DNA of 32,000 nt from Mycolicibacterium smegmatis. GTDB lineage: Bacteria > Actinomycetota > Actinomycetes > Mycobacteriales > Mycobacteriaceae. This document shows, one piece after another, positions 1 to 21,981 of this stretch (position 1 is the first letter of the stretch; each line of letters starts with the position of its first letter). The stretch lies in NCBI RefSeq assembly GCF_001457595.1, contig NZ_LN831039.1, positions 6,600,001-6,632,000 of the forward strand. The letters are read 5' to 3'. Below the pieces are notes generated by a model. It made no database searches and was not told where the DNA came from. It saw only the letters and a program-made list of their open reading frames with translations. Made by a program: the position numbers and the translations under genes.

Positions 1-290
1 GCGTCTGCGAGAGCAGCCGAGACCGAGGCCGCCCACGCCGGGGCGGCGGCTGCCGGTAGTGCAGCCACCTCGAACGCCGACCACAGATCAGGCGGCAGCG
101 TCTCATCGAACCCTTCCGGGCACACTCCGGAGTACCCGACGCGCGATACGACCATCTTGGCGACCGTGGTCCCCGCGACGTGGTCGAGCACACCCTGGCG
201 GTCTTCACCGTCCCACAGCAACGCCGCCGTGGCCGCAGAAATGGTCTGTTCGGCTGCGCGCTCTAAAATCGCCCAGTCAACTGCCATCAT
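1..290 (-). CDS. Hypothetical protein, N-terminal part only (gene continues beyond window start); last visible gene of the EspK-like operon
   Basis: Absent from the ORF track because it has no stop codon in the window. The minus-strand ATG at 290..288 overlaps the TGA (289..287) of the upstream gene as ATGA. The translation MMAVDWAILERAAEQTISAATAALLWDGEDRQGVLDHVAGTT... stays open to position 1, with G/C-rich third codon positions. Confidence 0.5.
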   Translation of the reverse strand, partial: MMAVDWAILERAAEQTISAATAALLWDGEDRQGVLDHVAGTTVAKMVVSRVGYSGVCPEGFDETLPPDLWSAFEVAALPAAAAPAWAASVSAALAD

Positions 291-2800
291 GATCCCCCGC
301 CCCATGGGGTGCTCACGATCTGCATCGCCAGATAAGCGATGTCGGCATACTTGATGTCCGGGCCGTTGTCCGGGTTCCACAACAGCAACAGTTCAGTCAG
401 ACGAGCCAAATCGTGGCAGGCCAACACATACGGCGAGGCCACCTCGTTGCCGGCTAACCACCCCGGCCGCATGGCAGAGCCGTTCGCCGCCGCGGTCACC
501 GATTCCGCCTCCAGTGCTCTCCACCGATCGTGTGACACCGGCAACCCGTTGCCCAATAGCTGCAGAATCTCCCGAATCACCGGCGACACCGCAAGATCTC
601 GAACCGATCCCGCACGCCCCAACGCCATTTCAGCCGCCGACAGCGTTGTGCGCCACGCTTCGGATCGGTCCGGCAGTGGGCCCTCACCGAATCCGGTCAG
701 CCGAGCGTATTCGGCACGGTTCAAGGTCTCCAACCGGTGGCTGTGTGTGTCGTCGAGCGGTGAGGGCGGCGCACCATCAGAGATCGGCGACAGAGACCGC
801 GAGCAGTCTTCATAGTGCTCGATCACCGACCGCGCCGGCATCGATGAGCCCCCGAGATCCGTCGAGACCGCCAACGCCCACAACTCGATATCCGAACGGT
901 GCTCAGAGGCCAACTTCGCATACGCCAGCATCGTCTCGGCCGGATTCGCCCAACTGAACCACCGCGCCCGAAACTCTGGTGGGAGCCCGCCATCGGCGAA
1001 CAACATCCGCGCCGACCGCGGCACAAACACCCCCGCTGGGAGGTAACCGGCACCCTCGCTGTTGACGATCAACGTCTCCACACCCGAGGACGTGCGGAAC
1101 ACACCCACACACCAATCCATGTACGGATACGCCCTGGAATCGTGCAACAGCTGATACAGCAACTGAGAAGCACTCGCCAGCAACGGGTCTGGCAGCGAGG
1201 AGCGGATCGCTTCGCTCGCAGCTCCCGCCGAAGCGCCCACACCGGAGCCCACCACCCCCGGCGGCAACGGCGCCACCGGGCCGGCAGAAGACCCACCACC
1301 ACCAGTCGGTGCGGTCGGCGCCGGCGCAGGACCGGCCGACGGTGTCACCGCGGCAGCCGGTGTCGCAGACCGCGCCACATCAGACCCGAACGGCGGCAGC
1401 GGCCCCATCGGGGCCGCCGGCACACCCGCCGAACCCACAGACCCCACCCCAGGACTTGCCGGCGCCGAAGACGGAACCGCCGGAGCCGACGACGCAGCCG
1501 AACCCGCAGCGACCGTCGACGGCGTCGCCCCCGCCGGAGCCGAAGGCACCCCAGAGGGAACAGCACTACCCGGTGAGCCCGTCGGCTGCGGAGAAACCGG
1601 CGGTGCAAATGTCGCCGGTCCGCCACCAGCGCTCAAACCAGCGCTCAAACCACGAGAAAAGTCCGACGGCGCACCAGCCGATGTCGACAACGGCGACTGC
1701 GGAAGGCCGCCGGCCCCCGGTACACCGCCACTGCTGGGCATGCCCGCACTGCCCAAACCGCCCGGCGAGCTCAACCCCTGAGTCGGCAGCCCGCCCGAAC
1801 CCAAACCGCTTGGCGCCGACGGCATCTTCGGAACACCGCCACTACCAAGGCTGCCTGCCGACCCCAGAGACGAAGCAGACGAACCACCGCCACCACTCAC
1901 GGGCAGTGCTGTTGGTGCTGGAGGGCCATCCTCGCTTGACTGCAAGCCATGACCACGTCTGTCACTTGGTGTGGGTGTGGCCCCTTCACCTTGGCTGGTG
2001 GTTTGGGTGGGTAATTCTTGTTGATCTGCCCCGCTAGCTTCGTCGGAATCGGCGGAAAGTCCGCCCCCACGATGAGGTTTAACCCCGTCTTCCTCAGTTT
2101 CTGTTTGCATGTCGAGCGGAGACGCGGGGGGTTCGGTACCAGGGAATCTGCTGGTTGGCATGCCGTTGCTGCGAGGGCCACCGGGTCCGCGGCCGCCCAT
2201 TCCGACACCTTGGTTTGCGAGGTCGCGCAGTTCGGGGTCGACCGGGTCGGCGCCGCTTCCCTGCCCCTGGCCGCCACTTCCAAGTCCGGCCTCAGCAGCC
2301 TTCGCCGAAATTGCAGAAGTCACCTCGGCGGACTTCGCAGTCGCGGCGGCCCGGGCTGCCGCAACGATTTCCATGATCTGCGCGCCGCCGATAGCCGCGG
2401 GGAAGCCCTGCTGGATGGCCTCCATCACCTTTTTGATCGCCTCATGGGCTTCGGCGTCGATCTGGTCCAGGTCCTCGCGCAGCCCATAGACCAGGCGTGC
2501 GCACTCCTCGCACACTCGCGCGAACGTAAAGTAACGATCCGCCTGCGACGTGTAGATGCTGGCATAGTGGTTCACCTTGTGGACGAAGCCGTCGATCATG
2601 TGGCCCGACTGCTCAGATGCAACCTGATTGCCCGCCTCGCGGCAACTGTCAGCATTCGAAAGAAGATCGACACCCTTAGCGTGCTGAGCGTCAGCAGCCG
2701 ACTGGAAGTTCTGTGGATCCGTAAGAGGCCAAACGCCACCAAGAATCGCTGCTGAGAACTGCCGCTGCGGCATCCCTGCCGGCGCACTGACGCTTACCAC
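287..2800 (-). CDS. EspK-like type VII secretion-associated protein (helical N-domain, long Pro/Gly/Ser/Ala-rich linker, globular C-domain)
   Basis: 837-aa ORF. It has an N-terminal helical region of about 170 aa (DPQNFQSAADAQHAKG...YTSQADRYF) and a low-complexity PGSA linker of about 350 aa. The C-terminal domain is about 300 aa (WCVGVFRTSSGVETLIVNSEGAGYLPAGV...). The tripartite layout and C-terminal motifs resemble M. tuberculosis EspK (Rv3879c) as I recall it. Start is GTG 2800 or ATG 2773. Confidence 0.6.
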   Translation of the reverse strand: MVSVSAPAGMPQRQFSAAILGGVWPLTDPQNFQSAADAQHAKGVDLLSNADSCREAGNQVASEQSGHMIDGFVHKVNHYASIYTSQADRYFTFARVCEECARLVYGLREDLDQIDAEAHEAIKKVMEAIQQGFPAAIGGAQIMEIVAAARAAATAKSAEVTSAISAKAAEAGLGSGGQGQGSGADPVDPELRDLANQGVGMGGRGPGGPRSNGMPTSRFPGTEPPASPLDMQTETEEDGVKPHRGGGLSADSDEASGADQQELPTQTTSQGEGATPTPSDRRGHGLQSSEDGPPAPTALPVSGGGGSSASSLGSAGSLGSGGVPKMPSAPSGLGSGGLPTQGLSSPGGLGSAGMPSSGGVPGAGGLPQSPLSTSAGAPSDFSRGLSAGLSAGGGPATFAPPVSPQPTGSPGSAVPSGVPSAPAGATPSTVAAGSAASSAPAVPSSAPASPGVGSVGSAGVPAAPMGPLPPFGSDVARSATPAAAVTPSAGPAPAPTAPTGGGGSSAGPVAPLPPGVVGSGVGASAGAASEAIRSSLPDPLLASASQLLYQLLHDSRAYPYMDWCVGVFRTSSGVETLIVNSEGAGYLPAGVFVPRSARMLFADGGLPPEFRARWFSWANPAETMLAYAKLASEHRSDIELWALAVSTDLGGSSMPARSVIEHYEDCSRSLSPISDGAPPSPLDDTHSHRLETLNRAEYARLTGFGEGPLPDRSEAWRTTLSAAEMALGRAGSVRDLAVSPVIREILQLLGNGLPVSHDRWRALEAESVTAAANGSAMRPGWLAGNEVASPYVLACHDLARLTELLLLWNPDNGPDIKYADIAYLAMQIVSTPWGGGS

Positions 2801-3384: not shown

Positions 3385-3456
3385 TTGCCCAGCTTAAGAC
3401 ACTGCAAGGTTAGGTTCAGGCGCTGTTTCCGTCCTACCGAGGTCGACCGGACCGCC

Positions 3457-3479
3457 TTGCGGTGAGCTGATCACCGCAA
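3457..3479. promoter_or_regulatory. Perfect 9-bp inverted repeat (TTGCGGTGA gctga TCACCGCAA) in a divergent intergenic region
   Basis: Read directly from the sequence. It lies 36 nt upstream of the ATG at 3515, between divergently transcribed genes. It could be an operator or a 5'-UTR hairpin. Confidence 0.3.
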
Positions 3480-3514
3480 CCGGCAGCTAGAATCAGCCGA
3501 GAGGAGCAACCAGA

Positions 3515-3937
3515 ATGGCGGGCAACGAACTACTCGCTCAAGCCACCGTCATCCCCGACTACCACCAGGTGCGTTTCGCCGCACTCGGCGCGAGAAGCGT
3601 TCCTGAACTCGATGACTACCCCGTGGAGTTCATAGCCGACGGATCCAGCATCCACGTGTTCACCTTCGCCGACGACCAAGACGAACACGGCGATCGCACG
3701 GTCGATGTCTATGTCTACCGCGGCACCGACACCGCCGGGCTAGGACGACTCATCTTCGACGCACCTTTGGACTTTTCTCAACCCGAATGCACTTTCGGCA
3801 GTGGACTGTCAGCCGAGGATGACCGTCACCACGTTTCGCTGAGGCGCACGGGCTCCATCCCTATCCGCGTGCTCACACGAGAAACCCAGCCCGGCAACGG
3901 AACCGACATCATCAACGTCCTCATCGACGACAGCTAA
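3515..3937 (+). CDS. Hypothetical 140-aa acidic protein; candidate immunity/nuclease-inhibitor-type protein of the toxin island
   Basis: AGGAG lies 8 nt upstream of the ATG. There is no signal peptide. The last ~10 codons plus the downstream leader are duplicated at 6946 onward. The N-terminal PDYHQV motif and the size are reminiscent of ComJ/Nin-like nuclease inhibitors, but that comparison is from memory and weak. Confidence 0.7.
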   Translation: MAGNELLAQATVIPDYHQVRFAALGARSVPELDDYPVEFIADGSSIHVFTFADDQDEHGDRTVDVYVYRGTDTAGLGRLIFDAPLDFSQPECTFGSGLSAEDDRHHVSLRRTGSIPIRVLTRETQPGNGTDIINVLIDDS

Positions 3938-4226
3938 ATCGCCACAGATCTTCCATATCGCGAAACCGTCTCGTTTTCTAAAGAATCCGGGACGGTCAGA
4001 TCCTGTCTTCAGCTAGAGCCTCTTACCCGGGTTTGTGCGCGGTCGTACGACACGCACGCTATGTGGTCGTACTGGCAGCACTCGATCAACAGAGCCGGAC
4101 CGCATCGAACGGCTTCCTCATTCTCACCACCATGCCGCCTGTGAGCAAACACACAAAGAACGCCCGGCATGCCCACTGACGCATCGCTGAGTTGGTAGCT
4201 GAATGCAGGTCAGAACCGGTTGAAGT
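3909..4226 (+). repeat. Cassette repeat copy A: 3' end of the 140-aa gene plus conserved non-coding leader upstream of the toxin gene
   Basis: By-eye alignment to 6946..7232. The first ~115 nt are about 90% identical (atcaacgtc.tcatcgacgacagcta.atcgccacagatcttc.atatcgcgaaac.gtctcgttt.ctaaagaa...). Homology then becomes patchier but stays clear (ctgtgagcaaac at 4139/7150; gtagct..atgcaggt...accggtt at 4195/7206). Confidence 0.75.
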
Positions 4227-4384
4227 AATTTGCCTGAGCGGAAATCTATCCGGCGCACGCCCCGTCGCCACACCAGTCTTTTACCAGGTGATTGACGTTT
4301 GTCGATAGCGCTGCTTACAGTCCCGTCCAGCAGACAGCGAGATAGCTGACTGGTTTCTAGTGAGATTGCTGAACGGGGTATCGC

Positions 4385-6406
4385 ATGCGGGGGGACGGTA
4401 GCTGGATGCCGGGTGCAGGAAACTTCCTGCACGATGGTCGGCACAGTGTGTGGTTGGGCTGGCCGGCGCGTTGGCTGGCCGCGTTGTGCGCGGTGGCGCT
4501 CACCGTCGGCGGGCTGCACCTGCTGGCGCCCTTGCCGCCGAGCGGGGCCGACGAGGCGGCGCAGGGGTTCGCCGACGCCGCGATCGCCGCGTTCACCGAT
4601 TCGGCGGTGGGCTCGGACCCGACACTGACCGCCCCGGCGCGCCGCGCCGGATTACCTGACGACCCGGTGGCCGGGTTGACCTCCCCGACTCCCGCCGGGC
4701 CGGTGCAAGTGGTACTACCGGGCGGGCTCGGCAACGCCCAGCACACCGCAGGCGGGCAAGTCGTCTACCCGAACGCCGGTGCCGGGTTCGACCTGTTGGC
4801 CGAAAACACGGGGAGCGGTACCCGCACCGTGGCCCGGATCAGCGACCCGGGCGGGCCGCGGATGGTCACCACGTTCGTGCGCACCCCGGCCGACACCGTC
4901 ATGCTGGCCCACACCAACGGCTATCTGACCATCAACAAAGCCACTCCCACCGCCGAGACCATCGGCATGTTCTCCCCGGCCGAAACCCGCGACGCCACCG
5001 GCGCATTGGTGCCCAGCTCCTATGTCGTCAAACAACTCGCCCCGCAGTTGTATGTGCTCGCCGAAGTCATCGACCCCCAACCGCACACCACCTGGCCGGT
5101 CTACGCCGACCCACCCCTGCACCTGACCGGGCCCGGCGGGGTGCCGGTGGGCTTGTTCGATTCGTTCACCAACACCGTCAGCTCGCTCGCCGACACTGCG
5201 ACCTCGGCGGTCACCACCGTCGCCTCGGCCACCGTGTCCGGTGCCAAGGCCGTGGGTGGGTTCGTCAAGGAAAACCCACTGGAATCGGCTCTGCTCGTGG
5301 GTGGTGTCGCGTTGGCGGTCACCGGCGTCGGTGGCCCCGCGGGTGCTGCGATGATCGCCTCGGCCACCGTCAACATCTCCAGCGCCGCCGTCGACATCGC
5401 TGCCGCCGCCATGCCCGACAACCAGACCCTGGGCATCGCCTCCACGGTGCTCGGCGCCGCGTCCATGGTCACCCCGCAAGGCGCCGCCAAGAAGGCCGTC
5501 AAAGAAGGCGCCGAACTCGCCGCCGAACAACTGGGCAAGCACGCCGACGACGTCATCGACGTCGCCAAAACCACCCCCACCCCACCAGCACAACTCGCCG
5601 ACGAGGTAGCAGCCGCAGGCACCCCGAAACCCCCAGTCACACCTGGTGTCTCACCGAAAGCCCCCAACGCGCCCCCGGTCAAGGCTGCAGATTCGTCGCC
5701 GAACGCAATCCCGGGCGGGGAGCAGAGCTGGGCGATGGCACCTGCGCCCAACGACAGGCGATTGAGCACCGACATCACCTCGCGCGTGCCGCTACGAAAA
5801 GGCACTAAGCAGCAAGTCCGCGACACTCATCCGTTCCACGACAGCGACGGCACTCCGCTCGATCCGCACACGTTTGAGCGGATTGAAGGGACGCCGCACT
5901 TCGGGCACAAACCAGAGTTCAAGGATGAGACGTCGCGGAAGATGACCGAGAAGTACGGGTTATCGCGTCGTGAGCGGGTCGAATGGGAAAACGTTCCCGA
6001 CCACTACCAACTCGAGAAGCCGCTCGAAAACAGTGGCCACAAGCACGAAATCCCGTACCGGCCAGGCGATGAAGACAAACTGTATGACAAGTTCGTGGAC
6101 TGGTCGCGCAAAGAGATCCATACCAACCCCCGGCTGGCCAAGGATCCCACGGCGCAGCGTCGAGCTAGCCTGGCCCGTCCGACGGGCCCAGACCAGAAAC
6201 GGCAAGTTCAGCATGTTCGCGCGGAGCAGACCACGAATAGGGTGCGCGATACAGCACGTGATAGCGCCCGCGATGCCAACCAATCCAGAAGCCGAAGCGG
6301 CAGTGACTCAGGATCGAAATCCAGTGGTAAATCGTCGGATAAGAAGTCCGATAAGAAGAAGGACAAGAAGAGCAAGAAGCATCACAAGAAGCCGTCCGGG
6401 AAGTGA
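4385..6406 (+). CDS. Secreted polymorphic-toxin-like protein with C-terminal GH-E-type HNH/EndoVII nuclease motif and Lys-rich tail
   Basis: 673-aa ORF with these parts. An N-terminal hydrophobic signal/TM (res 27-50, ...LLAPLPPSGA/DE). A domain of about 250 aa. A Gly/Ala-rich hydrophobic segment (res ~296-365). A Pro-rich linker (res ~396-445). Then HFGHKPEFKDETSRKMTEKYGLSRRERVEWENVPDHYQLEKPLENSGHKHE (res ~505-555). Finally a basic tail ...KSSDKKSDKKKDKKSKKHHKKPSGK. ATG 4406 is an alternative start. Confidence 0.8.
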   Translation: MRGDGSWMPGAGNFLHDGRHSVWLGWPARWLAALCAVALTVGGLHLLAPLPPSGADEAAQGFADAAIAAFTDSAVGSDPTLTAPARRAGLPDDPVAGLTSPTPAGPVQVVLPGGLGNAQHTAGGQVVYPNAGAGFDLLAENTGSGTRTVARISDPGGPRMVTTFVRTPADTVMLAHTNGYLTINKATPTAETIGMFSPAETRDATGALVPSSYVVKQLAPQLYVLAEVIDPQPHTTWPVYADPPLHLTGPGGVPVGLFDSFTNTVSSLADTATSAVTTVASATVSGAKAVGGFVKENPLESALLVGGVALAVTGVGGPAGAAMIASATVNISSAAVDIAAAAMPDNQTLGIASTVLGAASMVTPQGAAKKAVKEGAELAAEQLGKHADDVIDVAKTTPTPPAQLADEVAAAGTPKPPVTPGVSPKAPNAPPVKAADSSPNAIPGGEQSWAMAPAPNDRRLSTDITSRVPLRKGTKQQVRDTHPFHDSDGTPLDPHTFERIEGTPHFGHKPEFKDETSRKMTEKYGLSRRERVEWENVPDHYQLEKPLENSGHKHEIPYRPGDEDKLYDKFVDWSRKEIHTNPRLAKDPTAQRRASLARPTGPDQKRQVQHVRAEQTTNRVRDTARDSARDANQSRSRSGSDSGSKSSGKSSDKKSDKKKDKKSKKHHKKPSGK

Positions 6407-6482
6407 CAACGACTGCGACAAGGTGAAGTCGGCCCGGGTGGTCGCGCGACCCGTCCGTCGTCACGAGTAGGTGAGATGCTAC

Positions 6483-6941
6483 ATGGGCGAGGCAACGGGC
6501 ATACTCGCGCTGCGAAGGTATTGGAAAGGGTGGAATCCGGTGGCCAAGAGTGCTCTGCATACGTCGGCGGGCCTTGACCTTGTTGATGATTTGCGTCGAG
6601 AAATCGTTGATGGGCTCGACATCAACGAAGCCGACGAGGCCGGACTGACTCCTCTACACCACGCCTGCATTCACTGGAGCTACGAATCCGCCAAGATCCT
6701 CCTGGAAGCCGGAGCTGATGTCGACCCCCGAGACCAATGGGGTAACACACCGTTACTGCGGGTGGTCGGCAGCCGAGACGACAGCTTGGCATGGGTCACA
6801 TTGCTGCTCGAATACGGCGCTAACCCAACGATCGAGAACAACTACGGACACTCCCCGCTTAGCAACGCGAAACGAATGCAGGGAACCGAACGGTTGCTTC
6901 CGGCGCTTGAAGAAGCGCAGAAGCGATTTACCGCGCAATAG
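6483..6941 (+). CDS. Ankyrin-repeat protein, candidate cognate immunity protein
   Basis: Ankyrin consensus TPLHHA...LLEAGADVDPRD.WGNTPL...LLEYGANP. It starts 76 nt after the toxin stop on the same strand. AGGTGA lies ~10 nt upstream of ATG 6483; the ORF track start GTG 6471 is the alternative. Confidence 0.85.
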   Translation: MGEATGILALRRYWKGWNPVAKSALHTSAGLDLVDDLRREIVDGLDINEADEAGLTPLHHACIHWSYESAKILLEAGADVDPRDQWGNTPLLRVVGSRDDSLAWVTLLLEYGANPTIENNYGHSPLSNAKRMQGTERLLPALEEAQKRFTAQ

Positions 6942-6945
6942 GCGT

Positions 6946-7232
6946 AATCAACGTCATCATCGACGACAGCTAGATCGCCACAGATCTTCGATATCGCGAA
7001 ACTGTCTCGTTTCTAAAGAACCGAGGACGATCAGATCCTGTCTCAGCTAGACGCCTCATTCGCGCCGTCACGCTCTTGTGGCAGGTGTTCGATAGTGCGA
7101 TTCGAGCACAGACGGATCGCAGCTGGTCCGCACTCGTTTCTAAATGCGACTGTGAGCAAACGCACTCACAATGGCAACCACATTGGCTGGCGCATCGTTT
7201 GATGAGTAGCTACATGCAGGTAGGGACCGGTT
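6946..7232 (+). repeat. Cassette repeat copy B: remnant ...INVIIDDS* of a 140-aa-type gene plus leader
   Basis: It begins 5 nt after the ankyrin-1 stop and aligns with 3909..4221 (see copy A). Homology to the leader ends at about 7232, where sequence related to the toxin 3' end takes over. Confidence 0.75.
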
Positions 7233-7545
7233 TCATAACAACGAGTACAAGGGTTGGCTGAAACCGCAGGTTGATCAGGGCAATAAGCGGTTGGCCAAGG
7301 ATCCCACCGCGCAGCGGCGGCTCCGACAGGAAGCGGGCCCTAGCCAATCCAGCGCCGACACTCAACGCGACACCGCGCGTGAATCAGCACGCACCGCCGA
7401 CAACAACGAATCGGCCAATAATAGCGATTCCAAGCCGCGTGACAACGCAAATGGTAAGAGCAAGGAAAACAAAAAGAACGACAAGAAAAAAGAGAAGAAG
7501 AAAGACAAGAAGAGCAAGAATCACCACAAGAAACCCGGCAAGTGA
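7210..7545 (+). pseudogene. 3' remnant of a paralogous toxin gene (Lys-rich tail only; secretion and nuclease regions deleted)
   Basis: The frame is open from 7210. From 7288, RLAKDPTAQRR...KKKEKKKDKKSKNHHKKPGK parallels toxin residues 583-673 (RLAKDPTAQRR...KKKDKKSKKHHKKPSGK). There is no in-frame ATG; only TTG 7291 is available. Confidence 0.65.
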
Positions 7546-7603
7546 CCAAGTCATCGTGCACCAGGTCATCGCCAAGACTGATTGAGATGGGAAGCTGATC
7601 GCT

Positions 7604-8008
7604 ATGGCTCGCACACCGTTGCACATGTTCGGGATGAAATACCGCCGCGACGAGTACCTGGCGTTGATCGCCAGCGGCGAACACGACGTCAACGCCCAAG
7701 ACCTCGACGGTAAGACGCCGCTGCACTATGCGACCGAGCAGGAACAGTCGGAGATCGTGCACGCGTTGTTGGACGCCGGGGCTGATCCGAACGTTCAAGA
7801 ACGCATCTACGGCAATACCCCGCTATCGCAGGCGGTCCTTGAGATTGTCGAGCCCGGGGATCCGGTGATCGTCAAGATGCTCGACCACGGAGCCGACCCC
7901 ACCATCGCCAACAACTACGGCCACTCCGCGCTATCTTCCGCGCGCAGCATCGGCCGTAGCTGTGTGCCGCTGCTTGAAGCCGCCGCAGCCAAAAACAAGC
8001 AGGACTGA
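7604..8008 (+). CDS. Ankyrin-repeat protein, candidate orphan immunity protein
   Basis: KTPLHYA...LLDAGADPN...YGNTPL...LDHGADPTIANNYGHSALSSAR. This parallels ankyrin-1 (GANPTIENNYGHSPLSNAK) but is clearly diverged elsewhere. Confidence 0.85.
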   Translation: MARTPLHMFGMKYRRDEYLALIASGEHDVNAQDLDGKTPLHYATEQEQSEIVHALLDAGADPNVQERIYGNTPLSQAVLEIVEPGDPVIVKMLDHGADPTIANNYGHSALSSARSIGRSCVPLLEAAAAKNKQD

Positions 8009-8031
8009 AATGGACCTCGGCAGAGCAATGA

Positions 8032-9501
8032 TCAATACCTGTGGATGAGCCTCGGTGTGGGGGCGTGAAGATGGGCGCACCTTCCCGGGGATGATCTTCA
8101 CGGAATCAGGTATTCGATCAAGACCGGCGTTGGCGCGCTGGTTGGGAAGGTACGCCCATGCTCACCGTAGTTCACGACACCGAGGACGCCAACGACAAGG
8201 CCAGCGGTGCTGGTCGGTCGTTGTTGGATGAGATCGTCCGCGACGGGGCCCGGCAGATGCTGGCCGCGGCGTTGCAGGCCGAGGTCGCCGCCTACGTGGC
8301 GCAGTTCGCCGATCAACTCGACGAGAACGGTCACCGGTTGGTGGTGCGAAACGGCTATCACCAGCCCCGGGAGGTGCTGACCGCCGCCGGCGCGGTGCAG
8401 GTGAAAGCGCCGCGGGTCAACGACCGCCGTGTCGACCCCGACACCGGTGAACGCAAGCGGTTCTCCTCGGCGATCCTGCCGGCCTGGGCGCGCAAGTCGC
8501 CGCAGATGAGCGAGGTACTGCCGCTGCTGTACCTGCACGGCCTGTCGAGCAACGATTTCACCCCTGCCCTCGAGCAGTTCCTCGGCTCCGGCGCTGGGCT
8601 GTCGGCCAGCACGATCACCCGGCTCACGGCGCAGTGGCAAGACGAGGCCCGCGCGTTTGGGGCCCGCGACCTCTCGGCCACTGATTACGTGTATCTGTGG
8701 GTCGACGGCATTCACCTCAAGGTGCGGCTGGACCAGGAAAAGCTCTGTCTGCTGGTGATGCTGGGCGTGCGTGCTGATGGCCGCAAGGAGCTCGTGGCGA
8801 TCACCGACGGCTACCGCGAGTCGGCCGAGTCGTGGGCCGATCTGTTGCGCGACTGCAAGCGCCGCGGCATGACCGCCCCCGTACTCGCGATCGGCGATGG
8901 CGCGCTCGGGTTCTGGAAAGCAGTCCGCGAGGTTTTCCCGGCCACCAAAGAGCAGCGGTGCTGGTTTCATAAGCAGGCCAATGTTCTTGCTGCACTGCCG
9001 AAATCAGCGCACCCGTCGGCGCTGGCGGCGATCAAGGAGATCTACAACGCCGAGGATATCGACAAGGCCCAGATCGCGGTCAAGGCCTTCGAGGCCGACT
9101 TCGGCGCGAAGTATCCCAAGGCGGTCGCTAAGATCACCGACGACCTCGATGTGCTGCTGGAATTCTACAAGTATCCGGCCGAACATTGGATTCATCTGCG
9201 AACGACGAATCCGATCGAATCCACCTTTGCCACAGTGCGTTTGAGGACCAAGGTCACCAAGGGGCCCGGATCACGAGCGGCCGGACTAGCGATGGCCTAC
9301 AAGCTCATCGACGCCGCCGCGGCCCGCTGGCGTGCCGTCAACGCCCCACACCTGGTCGCCCTGGTCCGCGCCGGCGCGGTCTTCCATAAAGGCAGACTGC
9401 TCGAACGACCCACCGACATCACCCCGCCAACATCGCCCTCAGACGGCGGTCAGCACGCCGGAACGGAGGTCGCCTGAAACACCCCGATCCACAGGTATTG
9501 A
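8032..9501 (+). mobile_element. IS256-family insertion sequence (IS6120/IS1081-like)
   Basis: Perfect 15-bp terminal inverted repeats TCAATACCTGTGGAT (8032..8046) and ATCCACAGGTATTGA (9487..9501) flank a mutator-type transposase. The repeats extend to 20 bp with 2 mismatches. No 8-9-bp target duplication was found at either boundary choice. Confidence 0.8.
8158..9477 (+). CDS. IS256-family (mutator-type) transposase
   Basis: 439-aa ORF with hallmark stretches for this family: YLWVDGIHLKVR, LAIGDGALGFWKAV, QRCWFHKQANVL, TTNPIESTFATVRLRTK. Confidence 0.9.
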   Translation: MLTVVHDTEDANDKASGAGRSLLDEIVRDGARQMLAAALQAEVAAYVAQFADQLDENGHRLVVRNGYHQPREVLTAAGAVQVKAPRVNDRRVDPDTGERKRFSSAILPAWARKSPQMSEVLPLLYLHGLSSNDFTPALEQFLGSGAGLSASTITRLTAQWQDEARAFGARDLSATDYVYLWVDGIHLKVRLDQEKLCLLVMLGVRADGRKELVAITDGYRESAESWADLLRDCKRRGMTAPVLAIGDGALGFWKAVREVFPATKEQRCWFHKQANVLAALPKSAHPSALAAIKEIYNAEDIDKAQIAVKAFEADFGAKYPKAVAKITDDLDVLLEFYKYPAEHWIHLRTTNPIESTFATVRLRTKVTKGPGSRAAGLAMAYKLIDAAAARWRAVNAPHLVALVRAGAVFHKGRLLERPTDITPPTSPSDGGQHAGTEVA

Positions 9502-9883
9502 CAATTCCTCCTCGGCACATTCATTGTAGGAAAGACCTTCTACTACAAGGGCGCAAGCGAACTCGAGCTGGGCTCGGTGGCTGTTCCCTCGGGCCGGCTG
9601 CGGATCCGCGACCCGTTCTTTCCCCACCCCGGTCCTGATGACGGTTGCTTGCTGATCGTCGCGCCGGGGACGTACCGCGTCTGGGTCACCCTCGTCGAGA
9701 TCCCTGCCCTGCATGACGAAACCGAGCTGGAGACCCGCGAGGCCTATCTGTCGATCGGCCTCAACGACCGCACGCCCACCGGCTTGGACTACGCCGATGC
9801 TCTGCTGCCCTCACCTCGGCCCAGCTTCGGCGCGATGACCGGCACCGATTCCGGCAACATCGCGGTCTTCGACGACACTGAGG
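9502..9883 (+). pseudogene. Internal fragment of a DUF4241-like gene trapped between two IS elements
   Basis: The frame is open from the IS256 end (9502) and runs into the IS3 end. LELGSVAVPSGRLRIRDPFF...APGTYRVWV...REAYLSI...TDSGNIAVFDD fits my recollection of the DUF4241 pattern. Both the start and the C-terminal third are missing. Confidence 0.45.
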
Positions 9884-9959
9884 TGAGCCCCCTGTAGTGG
9901 TCCAGTCGTTGTGGGGACTCTGTTGCCCGAGTGTTCGGGCAGGAAGAATCACCAACGAC

Positions 9960-10247
9960 ATGACATCGAACAAACGCCGGCGGCATACCCCGGATCAGAT
10001 CATCCGCAAGCTCGCCGAGGGCAACAAGCTCCTGGGGACCGGCCAGGAACTCGCCGAGGTGTGCCGGCACCTGGAGATCACCGAGTCGACCTGGCATCGC
10101 TGGGTGGCCCAGTACGGCGGCATGAAAGCCAACGAGGCCAAACGCCTCAAGGAGCTCGAGGCGGAGAACGCCCGGCTCAAGAAGCTGGTCGCCAACCAGG
10201 CCCTCGACATCGACATGCTCAAGGAGATCTCGTCGGGAAACTTCTGA
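9960..10247 (+). CDS. IS3-family transposase OrfA (HTH plus leucine zipper)
   Basis: MTSNKRRRHTPDQIIRKLAEGNKLL...RLKELEAENARLKKLVANQALDIDMLKEI is typical of IS3 OrfA. The ATG at 9960 is preferred over the ORF-track start at 9897, which lies in the inverted repeat. Confidence 0.8.
   Translation: MTSNKRRRHTPDQIIRKLAEGNKLLGTGQELAEVCRHLEITESTWHRWVAQYGGMKANEAKRLKELEAENARLKKLVANQALDIDMLKEISSGNF
10235..10241 (+). other. Candidate programmed -1 ribosomal frameshift heptamer G_GGA_AAC
   Basis: In the orfA zero frame the codons are tcG GGA AAC ttc tga. This is the X_XXY_YYZ form, 4 nt before the orfA stop. The -1 frame continues GKLLTPNRKR... into OrfB. Confidence 0.55.
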
Positions 10248-11098
10248 CCCCGAACCGCAAGCGCAGCGCCGTCATCGCTCTGCGTGAACGGTTCGGGGTC
10301 TCTGAGCGCCGCGCGTGCTCGGTCGTCGGGCTGCACCGCTCGACGATGCGTCTGACGCCGGCTCCGGTCACCACCGAGGAGACCGAGTTGCGGGCGTGGC
10401 TGCGCCGGTTCTCCACTGATCGGCCGCGCTGGGGGTGGCGCCGGGCGGCGAAGATGGCCCGTCGCGCCGGCTGGAATGCCAACAACAAGCGCATCCGCCG
10501 ACTGTGGCGCGAGGAGGGCCTGCGGGTGCCTCAGCGGCGCCGCAAGAAGCGGCTGACGGGGATCGGGGTCGCCGTGGGGGCGATGTCGCCGATCCGTCCG
10601 AATGCGATCTGGGCGATGGACTTTCAGTTTGATACCACCGCTGATGGTCGCACGCTGAAGATGCTCAACGTGATCGACGAGTTCACCCGCGAAGCCCTCG
10701 CCATCGAGGTGGATCGCAGCATCGATGCCGACGGGGTCGTGGCTGTGCTGGATCGGCTCGCGCTCGTCCATGGGGCGCCGCACTATGTGCGTTTCGACAA
10801 CGGGCCTGAGTTCGTCGCGCACGCGGTGCGCGATTGGTGTCGATTCAACAGCGCCGGTTCACTTTTCATCGATCCGGGTTCGCCATGGCAGAACGCCTGG
10901 ATCGAATCGTTTAACGGCAGACTGCGAGACGAACTGCTCAACCTGTGGCGCTTCGATTCGCTACTGGAAGCCCGGGTGATCATCGAGGACTGGCGCTGCG
11001 ATTACAACGCCAACCGGCCCCACTCAGCCCACGGTGACCGCACCCCAGCCGAGTTTGCCCTACAGTGGGCCACGACCCATCAACCGAAAGTCGCATAG
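10235..11098 (+). CDS. IS3-family transposase OrfB (DDE integrase), expressed as OrfAB fusion by -1 frameshift
   Basis: The -1 frame downstream of the slippery site encodes ...PNAIWAMDFQFD...VRFDNGPEF...PGSPWQNAWIESFNGRLRDE...YNANRPHSA, the rve/DDE signature. The N-terminal part of ORF 9911..11098 overlaps orfA out of frame and is not real. Confidence 0.8.
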   Translation, partial: GKLLTPNRKRSAVIALRERFGVSERRACSVVGLHRSTMRLTPAPVTTEETELRAWLRRFSTDRPRWGWRRAAKMARRAGWNANNKRIRRLWREEGLRVPQRRRKKRLTGIGVAVGAMSPIRPNAIWAMDFQFDTTADGRTLKMLNVIDEFTREALAIEVDRSIDADGVVAVLDRLALVHGAPHYVRFDNGPEFVAHAVRDWCRFNSAGSLFIDPGSPWQNAWIESFNGRLRDELLNLWRFDSLLEARVIIEDWRCDYNANRPHSAHGDRTPAEFALQWATTHQPKVA

Positions 11099-11127
11099 CG
11101 ACTGGACCACCAAACGGGTCCCCCTCA

Positions 11128-14914: not shown

Positions 14915-15123
14915 GGGCCCCAGCCTGCCATGGAGAGCACATTGTGAGGTCTTTCGCAGGCCGATTGGTCTGTACCGAAGCCGCTCTCGCGTCGTCGGCT
15001 GTTGCGCGCCATCCGTCCCATCCGGTTTCCCGTCGAATACTTGTGCTGTAGGTCACATCGGGGAATGGTGGAAACAGGCCCGAGGGCCGCAGCGTGGCGC
15101 CCCGGGGGACCAGGAGGACAGCT

Positions 15124-17319
15124 ATGGCGGACAGAACACATTCTCCGGCCGGCAACGGGTCCGTGCCCACGGCGGAGCGTCCGGCCGCGATCCGGAACGT
15201 GGCACTTGTCGGGCCGTCGGGTGGCGGCAAGACCACATTGGTCGAGGCCCTGCTGGTGGCCGGGGGCGTGCTCACGCGGCCCGGTTCGGTGGCAGACGGT
15301 TCGACGGTGTGCGATTTCGACGAGGCCGAGATAGCCCAGCAGCGCTCGGTGAGCCTGGCGCTGGCGTCGTTGTCGCACAACGGGATCAAGGTGAACCTGA
15401 TCGACACACCCGGCTACGCAGATTTTGTCGGCGAGTTGCGCGCGGGTCTGCGCGCCGCCGACTGCGCGCTGTTCGTCATCGCGGCCAACGAGACCATCGA
15501 CGAGCCCACCAAGACCCTGTGGCAGGAGTGCGACGAGGTCCAGATGCCGCGGGCCGTGGTGATCACCAAACTCGACCACCCGCGCGCCAACTACGACGCG
15601 GCCCTCACCGCGGCCCAGGACGCGTTCGGCGACAAGGTCGCCCCGCTGTACTTCCCGGTCGGCGACGGCGAGAGTTGCAAAGGTGTGGTGGGCCTGCTCA
15701 CCCGCACGTACTACGACTACAGCGACGGCACGCACACCGCGCGGCCGCCGGACGGCTCCCACGATGCGGCCATCGCCGAACTTCGCGGCTCCCTCATCGA
15801 GGGCGTGATCGAGGAGTCCGAGGACGAGACGCTCATGGAGCGCTACCTCGGCGGCGAAGAGATCGACGAGGCCGTGCTGATCGCCGACCTGGAGAAGGCC
15901 GTGGCGCGTGCCTCGTTCTTCCCGGTGATCCCGGTGTGCAGCCAGTCGGGGGTCGGCACGCTCGAACTCCTCGACATCATCAGCCGTGGTTTCCCGGCTC
16001 CGCCGGAACATCAGCTGCCGGAGGTGTTCACGCCACAGGGCGCACCCCGCAAGCCGCTGTCGTGCGATCCGGACGGACCGCTGCTGGCCGAGGTGGTGAA
16101 GACGACGTCGGATCCCTACGTCGGCAGGGTCAGCCTGGTCCGGGTGTTCTCCGGCACCATCAGGCCCGACGCCACCGTGCACGTGTCGGGCCATTTTTCT
16201 GCCTTCACCGACACGTCGGCCTCGCCCGGGGCCGCCGCTGCCGCCGACGGCAGCACGCACAGCCACGCCGATCACGACGAGGACGAGCGCATCGGCACGC
16301 TGAGCTTCCCGCTGGGCAAACAGCAACGCCCGGCGCCCACGGTGGTGGCAGGCGACATCTGTGCGATCGGCCGGTTGAGCCGGGCCGAAACCGGTGACAC
16401 GCTCAGCGACAAAGCCGACCCGCTGGTGTTGCGGCCGTGGACCATGCCTGATCCGCTGCTGCCGATCGCGGTCGCGCCGCGCGCCAAGACCGACGAGGAC
16501 AAGCTGTCGGTCGGCCTGCAACGGCTGGCGGCCGAGGATGCCACGCTGCGCATCGAACAGAACCCGGAGACGCACCAGATTGTGCTGTGGTGCATGGGTG
16601 AGGCGCACGCCGCGGTGGTGCTCGACGCGCTGTCGCGGCGCTACGGGGTGTCGGTGGACACCGTCGAACTGCGCGTCCCGTTGCGGGAGACGTTCGCGGG
16701 CAGGGCAACCGGACACGGCAGGCACGTCAAGCAGTCCGGCGGGCACGGTCAGTACGCGGTGTGTGACATCGAGGTCGAACCGCTTCCGGAGGGGTCGGGT
16801 TTCGAGTTCGTCGACAAGGTCGTCGGGGGCGCGGTGCCCCGGCAGTTCATCCCGAGCGTCGAGAAGGGCGTGCGCGCGCAGATGGAGAAGGGTGTCACGG
16901 GAGAGTCGGGCTATCCGGTCGTCGACATCCGTGTCACGCTGTTCGACGGCAAGGCGCACAGCGTCGACTCGTCGGACTTCGCGTTCCAGATGGCGGGCGC
17001 GCTGGCGCTACGCGAGGCCGCGGCGGCGACGAAGATCAACCTGCTCGAACCGGTCGATGACGTGACCATCGTGGTGCCCGACGATCTCGTCGGGACGATC
17101 ATGGGCGATCTGTCCGGACGGCGCGGCCGCGTACTGGGCACCGACAAGCACGACGCCGACCGCACCGTGATCAAGGCCGAGATCCCCGAGGTGGAGTTGG
17201 TGCGGTACGCGATCGATCTGCGTTCGATGTCGCACGGTGCCGGCCAGTTCCGCCGGTCGTTCGCGCGTTACGAGCCGATGCCGGAGTCGGCCGCGGCCCG
17301 GTTGCGCACGAGCGCCTGA
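15124..17319 (+). CDS. fusA2: Elongation factor G-like protein (EF-G2)
   Basis: G1 motif GPSGGGKTT, then DTPGYADF and ITKLD, followed by EF-G domains II-V. AGGAGG lies 6 nt upstream of ATG 15124; the ORF-track start GTG 15094 is less likely. Confidence 0.85.
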   Translation: MADRTHSPAGNGSVPTAERPAAIRNVALVGPSGGGKTTLVEALLVAGGVLTRPGSVADGSTVCDFDEAEIAQQRSVSLALASLSHNGIKVNLIDTPGYADFVGELRAGLRAADCALFVIAANETIDEPTKTLWQECDEVQMPRAVVITKLDHPRANYDAALTAAQDAFGDKVAPLYFPVGDGESCKGVVGLLTRTYYDYSDGTHTARPPDGSHDAAIAELRGSLIEGVIEESEDETLMERYLGGEEIDEAVLIADLEKAVARASFFPVIPVCSQSGVGTLELLDIISRGFPAPPEHQLPEVFTPQGAPRKPLSCDPDGPLLAEVVKTTSDPYVGRVSLVRVFSGTIRPDATVHVSGHFSAFTDTSASPGAAAAADGSTHSHADHDEDERIGTLSFPLGKQQRPAPTVVAGDICAIGRLSRAETGDTLSDKADPLVLRPWTMPDPLLPIAVAPRAKTDEDKLSVGLQRLAAEDATLRIEQNPETHQIVLWCMGEAHAAVVLDALSRRYGVSVDTVELRVPLRETFAGRATGHGRHVKQSGGHGQYAVCDIEVEPLPEGSGFEFVDKVVGGAVPRQFIPSVEKGVRAQMEKGVTGESGYPVVDIRVTLFDGKAHSVDSSDFAFQMAGALALREAAAATKINLLEPVDDVTIVVPDDLVGTIMGDLSGRRGRVLGTDKHDADRTVIKAEIPEVELVRYAIDLRSMSHGAGQFRRSFARYEPMPESAAARLRTSA

Positions 17320-17320
17320 G

Positions 17321-17887
17321 TCAGCGGGCCGTTCCCACCGGCGCGTAGAACTCGGGGCGGCCCGCGCCTTCCTCAAGCTGGACCTCAAAGGTGTTGAGCG
17401 CCATGGCCAGAGTCAGGTACCCGCCCACGGTGAACATCAGATCCATGCGCTGGCGGTCGTCCAACCACCGGCCCAGCCGCGTCCACGTCTCGGGTGAGAG
17501 CTGCGCACCCGCCACCAACTCGTCGGTGGCATCGAGCACGGTTTGGTCGAATTCGTCTGCAGCGGAACCAGATCGGGCGGACTCCACGTCATCCACGGTG
17601 AGCCCCGCCAGCAGCCCCATCGCGGCGTGGTGGCCCCACTCGTAGACACAGCCCGCGCGGTACGCGGTCCGCAGGATCACCAGCTCCCGGATGCGCTCGG
17701 GCAGCAGTGAATCACGCTGCAGGTAGTTGTTGAACTGCAGGAAGTGGCGCGCCAGTTCGGGGTGGCGCACCAGGACGCCCAACGCGTTGCCCACGCCGTC
17801 GGCATCGCGCCGCTCGGGCGGCACCACCGACGCCAGCGCGTCGCGGGCGGCATCGTCCCAGTCCTCGGCCGGTAGCGGCGGCAGCAT
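17321..17887 (-). CDS. Carboxymuconolactone decarboxylase (AhpD-like) family protein
   Basis: 188 aa. RELVILRTAYRAGCVYEWGHHAAMG is the CMD-family core. It is convergent with fusA2 with a 1-nt gap. Confidence 0.7.
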   Translation of the reverse strand: MLPPLPAEDWDDAARDALASVVPPERRDADGVGNALGVLVRHPELARHFLQFNNYLQRDSLLPERIRELVILRTAYRAGCVYEWGHHAAMGLLAGLTVDDVESARSGSAADEFDQTVLDATDELVAGAQLSPETWTRLGRWLDDRQRMDLMFTVGGYLTLAMALNTFEVQLEEGAGRPEFYAPVGTAR

Positions 17888-17932
17888 CTCAAAAGTCCTC
17901 TCAAACGGCGCGTTACTTTACGATCGACCAGT

Positions 17933-17960
17933 AATCTACTTTACGATCGTAAAGTAGATT
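17933..17960. promoter_or_regulatory. Perfect 28-bp palindrome AATCTACTTTACGATCGTAAAGTAGATT, probable TetR operator
   Basis: Read directly from the sequence. It lies in the 100-nt divergent region between the CMD gene and the TetR gene. An extra half-site TACTTTACGATCG sits at 17914..17926. Confidence 0.6.
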
Positions 17961-17987
17961 GCGCGCGGATGAACGGGAGGACCGGCA

Positions 17988-18563
17988 GTGGACACGAGCA
18001 CCGCCAATGCCGCCGCCACCCGTGTGCGCCTTGTCGACGCGGCCGTACGGCTGATCACCCGGCACGGCTTCGCGGGCACATCCCTGCAGATGATCGCCGA
18101 TGAACTGGGCTTCACGAAGGCCGCGATCTACTACCACTTCCGCACCCGCGAGCAGCTTCTCGGCGCGGTCGTCGAGCCGTTCCTGAGCGAATTGCAGACC
18201 GTGATCGACGACGCCGAACGCCTGCGCGGCGTGCACGCCCGCGCCGATCGCATGGTGCGCGGCTATGCCGGGTTGGCCGTACGCAACCGCGCACTCGTGT
18301 CGGTGCTGGCGGGTGATCCGAGCGTGAACGAGGCATTGAAGACCCGTCCGGAGTGGGCGGCCCTGATCGATCGGCAGATGCGTCTGCTCACCGACGTCGC
18401 CCCCGGCCCGGCAGGCAGGGTCAAGGCGATGATGGTCTTCTCCGGGATGTCGGCCGCCGCCGGACCGGCGTCGGACGACATTCCCGTCGAGGAGCTGTAC
18501 GCGCATCTGGTCGACACGAGCCGCCGCGCCCTCGGCCTGCGCGCGCCGCGTGAAAAAGCCTGA
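17988..18563 (+). CDS. TetR/AcrR-family transcriptional regulator
   Basis: The N-terminal HTH RLVDAAVRLITRHGFAGTSLQMIADELGFTKAAIYYHF is canonical TetR_N. Confidence 0.9.
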   Translation: MDTSTANAAATRVRLVDAAVRLITRHGFAGTSLQMIADELGFTKAAIYYHFRTREQLLGAVVEPFLSELQTVIDDAERLRGVHARADRMVRGYAGLAVRNRALVSVLAGDPSVNEALKTRPEWAALIDRQMRLLTDVAPGPAGRVKAMMVFSGMSAAAGPASDDIPVEELYAHLVDTSRRALGLRAPREKA

Positions 18564-18590
18564 TCTGCAAGACGTTACGAAAGGAAGTAC

Positions 18591-19298
18591 ATGACGGCCA
18601 AGACGGCACTGGTCACCGGGGGCGCCTCCGGGATCGGCAAGGCGATCGCCGAGCGACTGGCCTCCGACGGTCACCAGGTCGCGATCCTGGACCTCAACCC
18701 CGGCGACGGCCCCCATGCCTACACCGCCGACGTCACCGACCGCGCCCAGGTCGACGGCGTGTTCAAGGCCGTCCGTGAAGAACTCGGGCCGGTCAGCATC
18801 CTGGTCAACGCCGCCGGCCTCAGCGATTTCACGCCGTTCACCGACATCTCGTTCGACCACTGGCAGCGCGTCGTGAACGTCAACCTGCACGGCGTCTTCC
18901 ACGTCGTGCAGGCCGCGCTGCCGGACATGGTCGCCGCCGGATGGGGCCGCATCGTCAACATCTCGTCGTCCAGCACGCATTCGGGTGTGCCCTACATGAG
19001 CTCGTACGTATCGGCGAAGTCCGCCGTGAACGGGCTCACCAAATCACTGGCGCTCGAATTCGGGCCGGCAGGCATCACGGTCAACGCGGTGCCACCGGGG
19101 TTCATCGACACGCCGATGCTGCGCGCCGCCGAGGCGCGGGGCGAACTCGGCGACATCGACGACACCATCGCCGCCACCCCCGTTCGGCGTATGGGCAGAC
19201 CCGAGGACATCGCGGCGACCTGCTCGTTTCTGATCTCCGAAGAAGCCGGCTACATCACCGGCCAGATCATCGGCGTCAACGGCGGCCGAAACACCTGA
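18591..19298 (+). CDS. Short-chain dehydrogenase/reductase (FabG-like)
   Basis: TGGASGIGKA Rossmann motif, NAAG, a catalytic YxxxK (YVSAK) and PGFIDTPM. Confidence 0.9.
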   Translation: MTAKTALVTGGASGIGKAIAERLASDGHQVAILDLNPGDGPHAYTADVTDRAQVDGVFKAVREELGPVSILVNAAGLSDFTPFTDISFDHWQRVVNVNLHGVFHVVQAALPDMVAAGWGRIVNISSSSTHSGVPYMSSYVSAKSAVNGLTKSLALEFGPAGITVNAVPPGFIDTPMLRAAEARGELGDIDDTIAATPVRRMGRPEDIAATCSFLISEEAGYITGQIIGVNGGRNT

Positions 19299-19466
19299 GG
19301 CACAACGCCGCACGCGCAACAATGAGAAGTGTGACCGGGCTCTCGCAACATAGGTGATTTGATGTTCGCCGCAGTAACGCCGATTTGTTGCGGTGACCAT
19401 CGGTCATCTGGAAAGGTTTGCTAGGCTCACGTTTTTCGCTGCGTCAATAAATCGGGGGTTGGTCAG

Positions 19467-21597: not shown

Positions 21598-21630
21598 GCG
21601 CCGTCAACCCCTTCTTGTCTGGCTGATCTG

Positions 21631-21981
21631 TTACTCGCCGGACGCGGAGTCGGAGGTGTCCGGCGTCGCGGTCAGGTACTCCAGGATGCCGGTGATGTCG
21701 AGCAGCCGCTCAAGATGCGGTGGCCGACGATCGATGTGCAGCTGGATGCCCGCAGGCGAGGTCTGCCGGTGGATGTTGAGCAGGCCGGACAGGCCCGCAG
21801 AATCGCAGAAGGTCAGGTCGGCGCAGTCGAGCCGCAGATCGTCGAGGGTCTGGTTGGTCGACAGGAGCTCGCTCACGTAGTCGACCAGTTTGTTGGTGGT
21901 CATGAAGTCGAGCTCACCGGCGACGGTCACCGTCGCCGATCGGCTGCCGTTCTCGGCTGCGGTGTTCAGTGAGAGGTTCAT
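21631..21981 (-). CDS. STAS-domain anti-sigma-factor antagonist (RsbV/SpoIIAA-like)
   Basis: 116 aa from ATG 21981. VAGELDFMTTNKL...LRLDCADLTFCDSAGLSGLL retains the DS(x)G phospho-serine context. Its ATG overlaps the upstream stop as ATGA. The 456-aa ORF-track version is an artefactual 5' extension. Confidence 0.8.
   Translation of the reverse strand: MNLSLNTAAENGSRSATVTVAGELDFMTTNKLVDYVSELLSTNQTLDDLRLDCADLTFCDSAGLSGLLNIHRQTSPAGIQLHIDRRPPHLERLLDITGILEYLTATPDTSDSASGE

Follow-up and report, generated by a model that had tools for sequence, protein, structure and literature searches.

The locus analysed here raises the question of why an ankyrin-repeat gene, ankB, stands directly behind a complete toxin-immunity cassette with little more than a fragment of toxin sequence in front of it. 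The window, by which we mean the whole stretch of 32,000 nucleotides (nt) examined, covers positions 6,600,001 to 6,632,000 of Mycolicibacterium smegmatis contig NZ_LN831039.1 and is 100% identical to M. smegmatis CP082846.1. Its cassette A encodes a nuclease toxin of the GH-E type followed by the ankyrin-repeat protein AnkA, and the segment at 6947-8008 resembles cassette A at both the leader and the toxin tail. This segment is very probably the remnant of a second, B-type toxin-immunity cassette, in which an intact orphan immunity gene of the Imm-ank type is preserved behind the pseudogene stump of its toxin. Structurally, the B cassette consists of part of a leader that passes, at one point, directly into the 3' tail of a toxin gene. 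For comparison we used loci labelled L004, L005 and L009 (metagenome contigs), L026 (the locus of M. goodii P0030) and L003 (CP080273.1), among others. The parts of the two cassettes are listed below, with lengths of proteins given in amino acids (aa).

3515-3937: open reading frame (ORF) of 140 aa, upstream of leader A
3911-4384, + strand: leader of cassette A, including the final 27 nt of the 140-aa ORF (447-nt leader proper); within it, an imperfect palindrome (3966-4008), an invariant block (4139-4154) and a promoter-like TTGACG-N18-TACAGT (4292-4321)
4385-6406, + strand: toxin A, 673 aa, Pfam GH-E with E 4.9e-12, which exceeds the gathering score
6483-6941, + strand: AnkA (Imm-ank type), candidate immunity protein for toxin A, with Pfam Ank families and gene calls elsewhere; the longest ORF starts at GTG 6471
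6947-7237, + strand: leader fragment of cassette B, corresponding to A 3911-4226, with the promoter-proximal 160-180 nt missing
7236-7239, + strand: joint between leader and toxin tail, at 7237/7238 +/-2 nt, between ...GGTTTCATA and ACAACGAG...
7238-7545, + strand: 3' stump of a B-type GH-E toxin gene, comprising the last 102 codons with the Lys-rich tail
7522-7549, + strand: recombination crossover interval at the conserved toxin 3' end, M. goodii-like upstream and L004-identical downstream
7604-8008, + strand: AnkB, 134 aa, intact ankyrin-repeat gene, Pfam Ank_2 with E 3e-24

Toxin A consists, in this order, of an N-terminal signal or transmembrane-like segment, the N-domain of the family, a Pro-rich linker, the GH-E nuclease (aa 488-555) and a Lys-rich tail. 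Copy B was compared with copy A by blastn, complemented by further local, three-way and multiple alignments. The blastn matches pair B 6947-7057 with A 3911-4022 (90% identity, E 2e-37), B 7144-7232 with A 4132-4221 (68%, E 0.003), B 7288-7319 with A 6131-6162 (91%, E 1.6e-7) and B 7492-7546 with A 6350-6407 (84%, E 5.8e-13). A first-pass annotation, made from the letters of the window, had described a leader match up to about 7232 and a correspondence of 7288 to toxin A position 6131, and every similarity that it named was recovered. The weak leader match has a local score of 30, compared to a mean of 9.9 (standard deviation 1.3) for dinucleotide shuffles, and none of 500 shuffles reached the observed score; the outcome was the same (0 of 500) when leader B was scored against the leader of an independent relative.

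Against three full-length genes (from M. goodii, L004 and M. wolinskyi), toxin homology begins at window position 7238, and leader homology ends at about 7235-7237. The stump protein opens with ...NEYKGWLK..., which directly follows the ...ADDMY of the intact toxins. Thus, the change from leader to toxin tail reported earlier is real and its junction can be mapped as predicted, but it does not extend over some 55 nt: the sequence at 7233-7287 already belongs to the toxin tail and is too diverged from copy A for a match at the DNA level. The missing stretch, previously put at about 1.9 kb, measures ~1.86 kb on the coordinates of copy A; compared with L004 it amounts to 1,953 nt, and compared with M. 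goodii to 1,935 nt. In the latter comparison (L026 5819-7753), the loss comprises 182 nt of leader and codons 1-584, including the whole GH-E domain. In these alignments, the lost segment spans the conserved candidate promoter, the 5' untranslated region (UTR) and ribosome-binding site, the start codon together with the N-terminal delivery region, and the entire GH-E nuclease, and the start codon, export region and nuclease that the first-pass annotation had listed as absent all fall inside it.

Of the 32 fetched loci, 16 contain the joint as an identical 30-nt sequence; these include three complete genomes as well as drafts and metagenomes, and the same arrangement was found at all ten places that encode an identical AnkA. 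Because the joint occurs in independent assemblies, three complete genomes among them, it is not an assembly artefact; the structure is real and fixed in this lineage. No clear microhomology was detected at the joint, and an ATAT near both parental breakpoints (L004 and M. goodii) does not reproduce it.

Undeleted counterparts of the B-type toxin, for which the first-pass annotation had proposed to search related strains, are present in M. goodii, M. wolinskyi and the contigs L004, L005 and L009. In an exact-protein look-up, each of these three contigs proved to encode a 100% identical AnkB, immediately preceded by a 692-aa GH-E toxin at the same spacing of 59 nt, and the ankB gene of the window shows no nucleotide difference from its copy in L004. 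In M. wolinskyi, a toxin of 686 aa stands in front of an AnkB homologue that is 84% identical at the aa level. The closest parent, found by blastp of the stump peptide against homologues of toxin A, is M. goodii P0030 (CP012150.1), whose 686-aa toxin shares 94% aa identity over the tail; at the nucleotide level, identity between the stump (7238-7537) and the 3' end of this gene is 98% across some 300 nt, mostly outside repeats. The GH-E domain of the P0030 toxin occupies aa 510-576, and the stump aligns to aa 586-686, after the nuclease. The M. goodii locus L026 has the gene order 140-aa gene, leader, 686-aa toxin, AnkB-like gene and DUF4241-like gene, and the ankyrin gene starts 59 nt past the toxin stop in L004, M. 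goodii, M. wolinskyi and the remnant in the window. A degenerate DNA scan of metagenomes for the tail returned nothing beyond the L004-type contig and one further copy of the deletion allele, and a genome scan with AnkB returned only M. wolinskyi plus two distant ankyrin genes.

The downstream ankyrin gene is intact, as first annotated. Comparative genomics has paired Tox-GH-E domains with ankyrin-repeat immunity proteins (PMC3482391). Since AnkB is identical to the copy located beside an intact toxin and since this pairing is documented, orphan immunity is its most likely function, and ankB would most likely protect against the B-type GH-E toxins of neighbouring Mycolicibacterium strains. The earlier description of an orphan or displaced toxin-immunity module overstates what remains: no toxin domain is left, and the orphan immunity gene is accompanied by an effector stump.

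How ankB might be expressed can be approached through the leaders. Leader A contains a sigma-70-type site, TTGACG-N18-TACAGT, at 4292-4321, and the motif TTGACG-N18-TA(C/G)AGT is found ~80-93 nt ahead of the start codon in cassette A and in L004, M. wolinskyi and an HNH-type paralogue from the same genome (loci L004, L011 and L029). M. goodii (L026) and the MKD8 paralogue (L031) have variants of it, and the leaders around the motif are otherwise diverged. This conservation amid diverged leaders makes the motif the best promoter candidate. It falls inside the leader segment lost from B, and no match to TTGNNN-N16-19-TANNNT was found in the retained B leader. Thus, the leader described as retained survives as the fragment 6947-7237 without its promoter-bearing 182 nt. 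With its own promoter lost, ankB would most likely be transcribed by read-through from the toxA-ankA operon promoter at ~4292-4321. No terminator-like site was found on the + strand in 3400-8200, and hence none between ankA and ankB, and the palindrome after ankA folds weakly, which together point to putative read-through into ankB.

Further blocks are conserved in the leaders of the paralogues, namely GTAGCTA, TTTTGCC..GGAAA, GATAGCTGA and, before the ATG, TTGCTGATCGGGGGAT. A 16-nt block, CTGTGAGCAAAC(A/G)CAC (4139-4154 and 7150-7165), is kept in leaders A and B and in those of M. goodii and L004 amid poor conservation. An Rfam search returned no RNA family in leader A or leader B.

Two histories, which we consider about equally likely, could have produced the joint, and the structural conclusion is independent of which of them holds. 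According to the first, a complete B cassette would have stood in tandem downstream of A and would have undergone an internal deletion of 1.94 kb. The second is a one-step C-terminal displacement, a serious contender although it falls somewhat short of an even chance. Here the resident cassette would have been M. goodii-like (140-aa gene, leader, N-domain, nuclease B, tail B, ankB), and the incoming DNA would have brought nuclease A, tail A, ankA, the 3' end of a 140-aa gene and a foreign leader. A homologous crossover no further downstream than 5678, within the conserved N-domain or the linker, would have been combined with an illegitimate joining of the far end at 7237/7238, so that the N-terminal 580 codons of the resident gene were kept and now serve toxin A, and the 'B leader' would be donor DNA.

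Several observations speak for displacement. Leader A is the orthologue of the M. goodii leader (86% identity over all 480 nt), whereas leader B reaches 89% over the first 110 nt only, and the N-domain of toxin A is 86-97% identical to that of M. goodii. Ancestry across the joint is discordant, with 98% identity to M. goodii in the B tail and ~65-89% in the B leader, and the lack of clear microhomology at the joint fits as well. Moreover, homology-facilitated illegitimate recombination has already been proposed for the immunity arrays of the Vibrio cholerae type VI secretion system (T6SS) and for Rhs loci (PMC5361080). However, displacement needs a donor in which a leader already followed ankA, that is, a tandem array elsewhere, and none was found. 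Outside M. smegmatis, the searched data contain no close relative of nuclease A (the best match is 63% identical), and the B leader allele was not found in the paralogous loci L027-L032, where only the short palindromic motif matched. The locus is also mosaic, with a crossover at 7522-7549, and a breakpoint inside the missing segment could equally account for the discordant ancestry. The term 'deletion derivative' used in the first-pass annotation is right as to structure, a leader joined to a toxin tail, but deletion is one of two processes that fit: given the discordant ancestry of these parts, the joint may instead be a scar of illegitimate recombination from the displacement of the resident nuclease by cassette A.

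The mosaic pattern is sharp. Relative to L004, the window has 70 differences in 7238-7521, followed by none in 7522-8022 and 9510-9878; relative to M. goodii the pattern is reversed, with 6 differences up to the crossover and 46 after it. Two metagenome contigs, L006 and L010, have 7522 as their very first position, as though the assembly graph branched at this point. This crossover at 7522-7549, together with conserved DNA that brackets variable nuclease and immunity genes, is the reason for considering that the stump and the leader fragment are part of a cassette-exchange architecture rather than inert debris, a reading that we regard as improbable. If it were true, the palindromes, the leader blocks and the end of the Lys-rich tail would act as recombination arms for swapping or stacking immunity genes, and the stump would be a landing pad at which ankB could be replaced by an allele identical to that of a co-occurring toxin-producing strain.

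The imperfect palindrome concerned is ~42 nt long, reads CTGTCTCGTTTCTAAAGAA..GAGACAG (followed by GATCAGATC in most copies) and is located upstream of toxin leaders. It was found at the following positions.

Window: 3966-4008 and 7002-7043
L026: 5557-5606 and 9161-9210
L004: 7382-7431 and 11078-11127
L011: 7024-7073
L031: 4658-4707

In M. goodii and L004, the palindrome also occurs just after the last gene of the island and thereby brackets the cassette. A role as an RNA hairpin or terminator was rejected, as the consensus energy is weak (-2.65 kcal/mol) and no covariation was observed; the element looks more like a DNA site or a cassette boundary. The two cassettes of the window additionally share direct repeats, 3911-4022 with 6947-7057 (113 nt, 90%) and 6350-6407 with 7492-7546 (58 nt, 84%). 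These repeats could mediate the loss of cassette A or a fusion of toxA to the non-cognate ankB; among the fetched loci, neither a loss of cassette A nor a toxA-ankB fusion was found.

The fate of the stump itself bears on our reading of 6947-8008 as a cassette remnant. Its frame is open from 7210 (112 codons), and the first start-type codon, TTG 7291, would give an 84-aa ORF with 18 Lys residues, which the first-pass annotation considered expressible from the retained leader. The ORF is indeed present, but the evidence argues against its expression. The candidate promoter and the ribosome-binding region are lost, and no Shine-Dalgarno-like sequence precedes TTG 7291. This codon corresponds to the Leu codon of the conserved RLAKDP motif and is already TTG in the intact genes of M. 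goodii and M. wolinskyi, where it is internal. Searches with 7210-7545 and 7291-7545 returned no match to a Pfam family, and the ORF has no other family match. Between the stump and the M. goodii gene there are 6 differences in 306 nt, all six of them nonsynonymous, and four are clearly derived in B, including a K->N change in the otherwise invariant KSKKHHKK motif. The probability that all six would be nonsynonymous is 0.0003-0.003 under the family omega of 0.09-0.15 and 0.26 under neutrality.

In CP080273.1 (L003), a 4.1-kb IS21/DDE composite of insertion sequences (IS) lies inside the stump (equivalent to 7346-7354) and ankB is untouched, and therefore the stump is dispensable. The lost signals, the ancestral Leu codon, the six nonsynonymous changes and this disruption lead us to infer that the 84-aa Lys-rich ORF is a pseudogene stump and not a gene. 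As a further feature of this genome, its toxin A is split by an IS3-family insertion (equivalent to 5452-5454, with a 3-bp duplication CGG), which makes CP080273.1 an immunity-only locus, where toxin A and the B stump are disrupted and both ankyrin genes are intact.

That the 84-aa ORF encodes a functional small protein, such as a nucleic-acid-binding peptide or a helper of AnkB, is very unlikely in view of these data. It would be in keeping with the open frame, which gene callers annotate in several assemblies, with the conservation of the Lys-rich tail at the C-terminus of nearly all family members, which points to a functional module in the intact toxins, and with a dN/dS of ~0.09 for the tail compared to the more distant alleles of L004 and M. 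wolinskyi. However, the divergence of the tail from these distant alleles is mostly older than the truncation. As for a chance or low-complexity resemblance or an assembly artefact, the Lys-codon region is of low complexity and internally repetitive (family D1) and the 7144-7232 match to copy A is only 68% identical, but the E-values, the shuffles, the long and mostly non-repetitive match of the stump to the M. goodii toxin tail and the recurrence of the joint make this explanation negligible.

Other points weigh against the remnant reading. The stump frame remains open and is called as a gene, and the evidence for its decay comes from six recent substitutions set beside the low dN/dS of the tail. 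The promoter is a conserved match to a consensus, and its -10 element reads TGCAGT in M. goodii. Within the searched data, neither a strain with intact cassettes A and B in tandem nor a donor of nuclease A was found. Finally, both the read-through into ankB and the protective role of AnkB are deduced from sequence comparison.

The parent cassette appears, on its domain content, to belong to a polymorphic nuclease-toxin family of fast-growing mycobacteria. The GH-E scores are 46.7 bits for toxin A, 49.1 for M. goodii P0030, 48.2 for L004 and 50.3 for M. wolinskyi (Pfam cut-off 25 bits). A total of 136 homologues of toxin A share an N-terminal region of ~400 aa and differ in their toxin domains (PF14410, PF01844/PF14279, PF01541 or PF14040, with or without PF07591), so that the nuclease types across the family include GH-E, HNH, GIY-YIG and NucA/B, with a HINT domain present or not. 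The Lys-rich tail of ~100 aa (LAKDPTAQRR ... KKDKKSKKHHKKPGK; window 6086-6406 and 7238-7545) is C-terminal in nearly all members, whatever the nuclease type; the variable toxin domain thus occupies an internal position, an uncommon arrangement among polymorphic toxins. Neither the toxins nor the 140-aa protein nor the EspK_C-type neighbour could be assigned to an NCBIfam family, and we found no experimental work on this toxin family in the literature searched.

Toxins of the family adjoin EspK_C-domain proteins in two loci (window 287-2800, - strand, and MKD8, L031 8157-8567). In a third locus from the same genome (L029 1-4505), the neighbours of the toxin are a PhageMin_Tail (tape-measure-like) protein and a DUF7257 protein. 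These EspK_C and PhageMin_Tail neighbours may hint at a delivery route.

Downstream of ankB, the window contains two insertion sequences and part of a further island gene.

8023-9509, + strand: IS256/Mutator-family insertion sequence, Pfam Transposase_mut, with boundaries and target duplication
9511-9878, + strand: 5' part of a DUF4241-like gene (tblastn, aa 3-125 of 199, 97.6% to M. goodii)
about 9879-11118: IS3-family element with inverted repeats 9889-9913 and 11094-11118

The IS256/Mutator element begins 14 nt past the ankB stop and is flanked by an 8-bp target duplication, CCTCGGCA (8015-8022 and 9510-9517). CP089233.1, CP080273.1, L004 and M. goodii do not carry it, and at its left end it matches the Rfam small RNA family Ms_AS-8 (77.7 bits; 8048-8122, - strand). 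In the B-type islands of M. goodii, M. wolinskyi and L004, the DUF4241-like gene stands third; here it is cut after codon 125 of 199, at 9878/9879, by the IS3-family element. The toxin island of M. goodii is flanked by the Mce4 operon on one side and an EF-G-like gene on the other. In M. smegmatis (window 15039-24214 compared with L026), the Mce4 and EF-G-like flanks are ~1.8 kb apart, and the island is located upstream in the opposite relative orientation. On this gene order, the toxin island appears to have moved or been inverted between the two species.

The locus provides a mapped mycobacterial case, with the joint located within 2 nt and intact parents identified, of a polymorphic-toxin locus that drops the weapon and retains the shield. 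It extends the orphan-immunity pattern of T6SS, contact-dependent inhibition (CDI)/Rhs and type VII secretion system (T7SSb) loci to nuclease toxins from a family in fast-growing mycobacteria. The ankB gene and the toxin of M. goodii are reagents for probing toxin-mediated competition among Mycolicibacterium strains, and for annotation purposes the 84-aa ORF should be marked as a pseudogene fragment.

Among known systems, the parent cassette resembles the Tox-GH-E/Imm-ank pairs (Zhang et al. 2012, PMC3482391), in which a GH-E nuclease of the HNH/EndoVII fold is followed by an ankyrin-repeat immunity gene and homologues share the N-terminal region while swapping nuclease types. The shared N-terminus, the GH-E domain and the adjacent immunity gene are all present in the parent cassette, whereas the remnant at 7238-7545 has no toxin domain. 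Unlike the classical pairs, in which the toxin domain stands at the very C-terminus, the variable nuclease of this family is internal and followed by the Lys-rich tail of ~100 aa.

As far as orphan cdiA-CT/cdiI and rhs-CT/rhsI modules (Poole et al. 2011 and Koskiniemi et al. 2014) are described where PMC5361080 cites them, they are similar in having a 5'-truncated toxin fragment and an immunity gene behind a full-length locus, and in sharing direct repeats with the main gene. According to the same account, these orphans retain the CT domain that encodes the toxin, and recombination with the main gene can re-activate them; in contrast, the mycobacterial remnant lacks the whole GH-E domain, and toxA would become fused to the non-cognate ankB if tails A and B recombined. 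The esaG arrays of the Staphylococcus aureus T7SSb (PMC9484751) likewise keep immunity genes directed against a polymorphic nuclease toxin where no cognate toxin is present, and homologous recombination between repeats reshuffles them. However, they are long paralogous immunity arrays free of toxin stumps and leader fragments, and they belong to another secretion system and have another immunity fold. The features of a pseudogene remnant are also present, with promoter, UTR and start codon lost and six of six substitutions nonsynonymous, although the frame is open and the substitutions number only six.

The closest likeness was found to the auxiliary T6SS clusters of V. cholerae (Kirchberger et al. 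2017, PMC5361080), where an intact effector-immunity pair is followed by a 3' immunity gene without its cognate effector, a short 3' piece of the former effector precedes this orphan, and the same immunity gene stands beside an intact effector in other strains. That pattern has been attributed to displacement by homology-facilitated illegitimate recombination (PMC5361080). There are differences: the mycobacterial host is an actinobacterium without a T6SS, the toxin has an N-terminal signal or transmembrane-like segment, the stump is preceded by a duplicated leader fragment, and the window holds a single orphan and no long array. In the window, ankB has no functional cognate effector, is paired with one elsewhere and is positioned 3' of toxA-ankA (4385-6941). 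Thus, the arrangement matches the V. cholerae pattern of an orphan immunity gene with a stump on every structural criterion tested, and a toxin stump in front of an orphan immunity gene is a familiar by-product of toxin-gene turnover.

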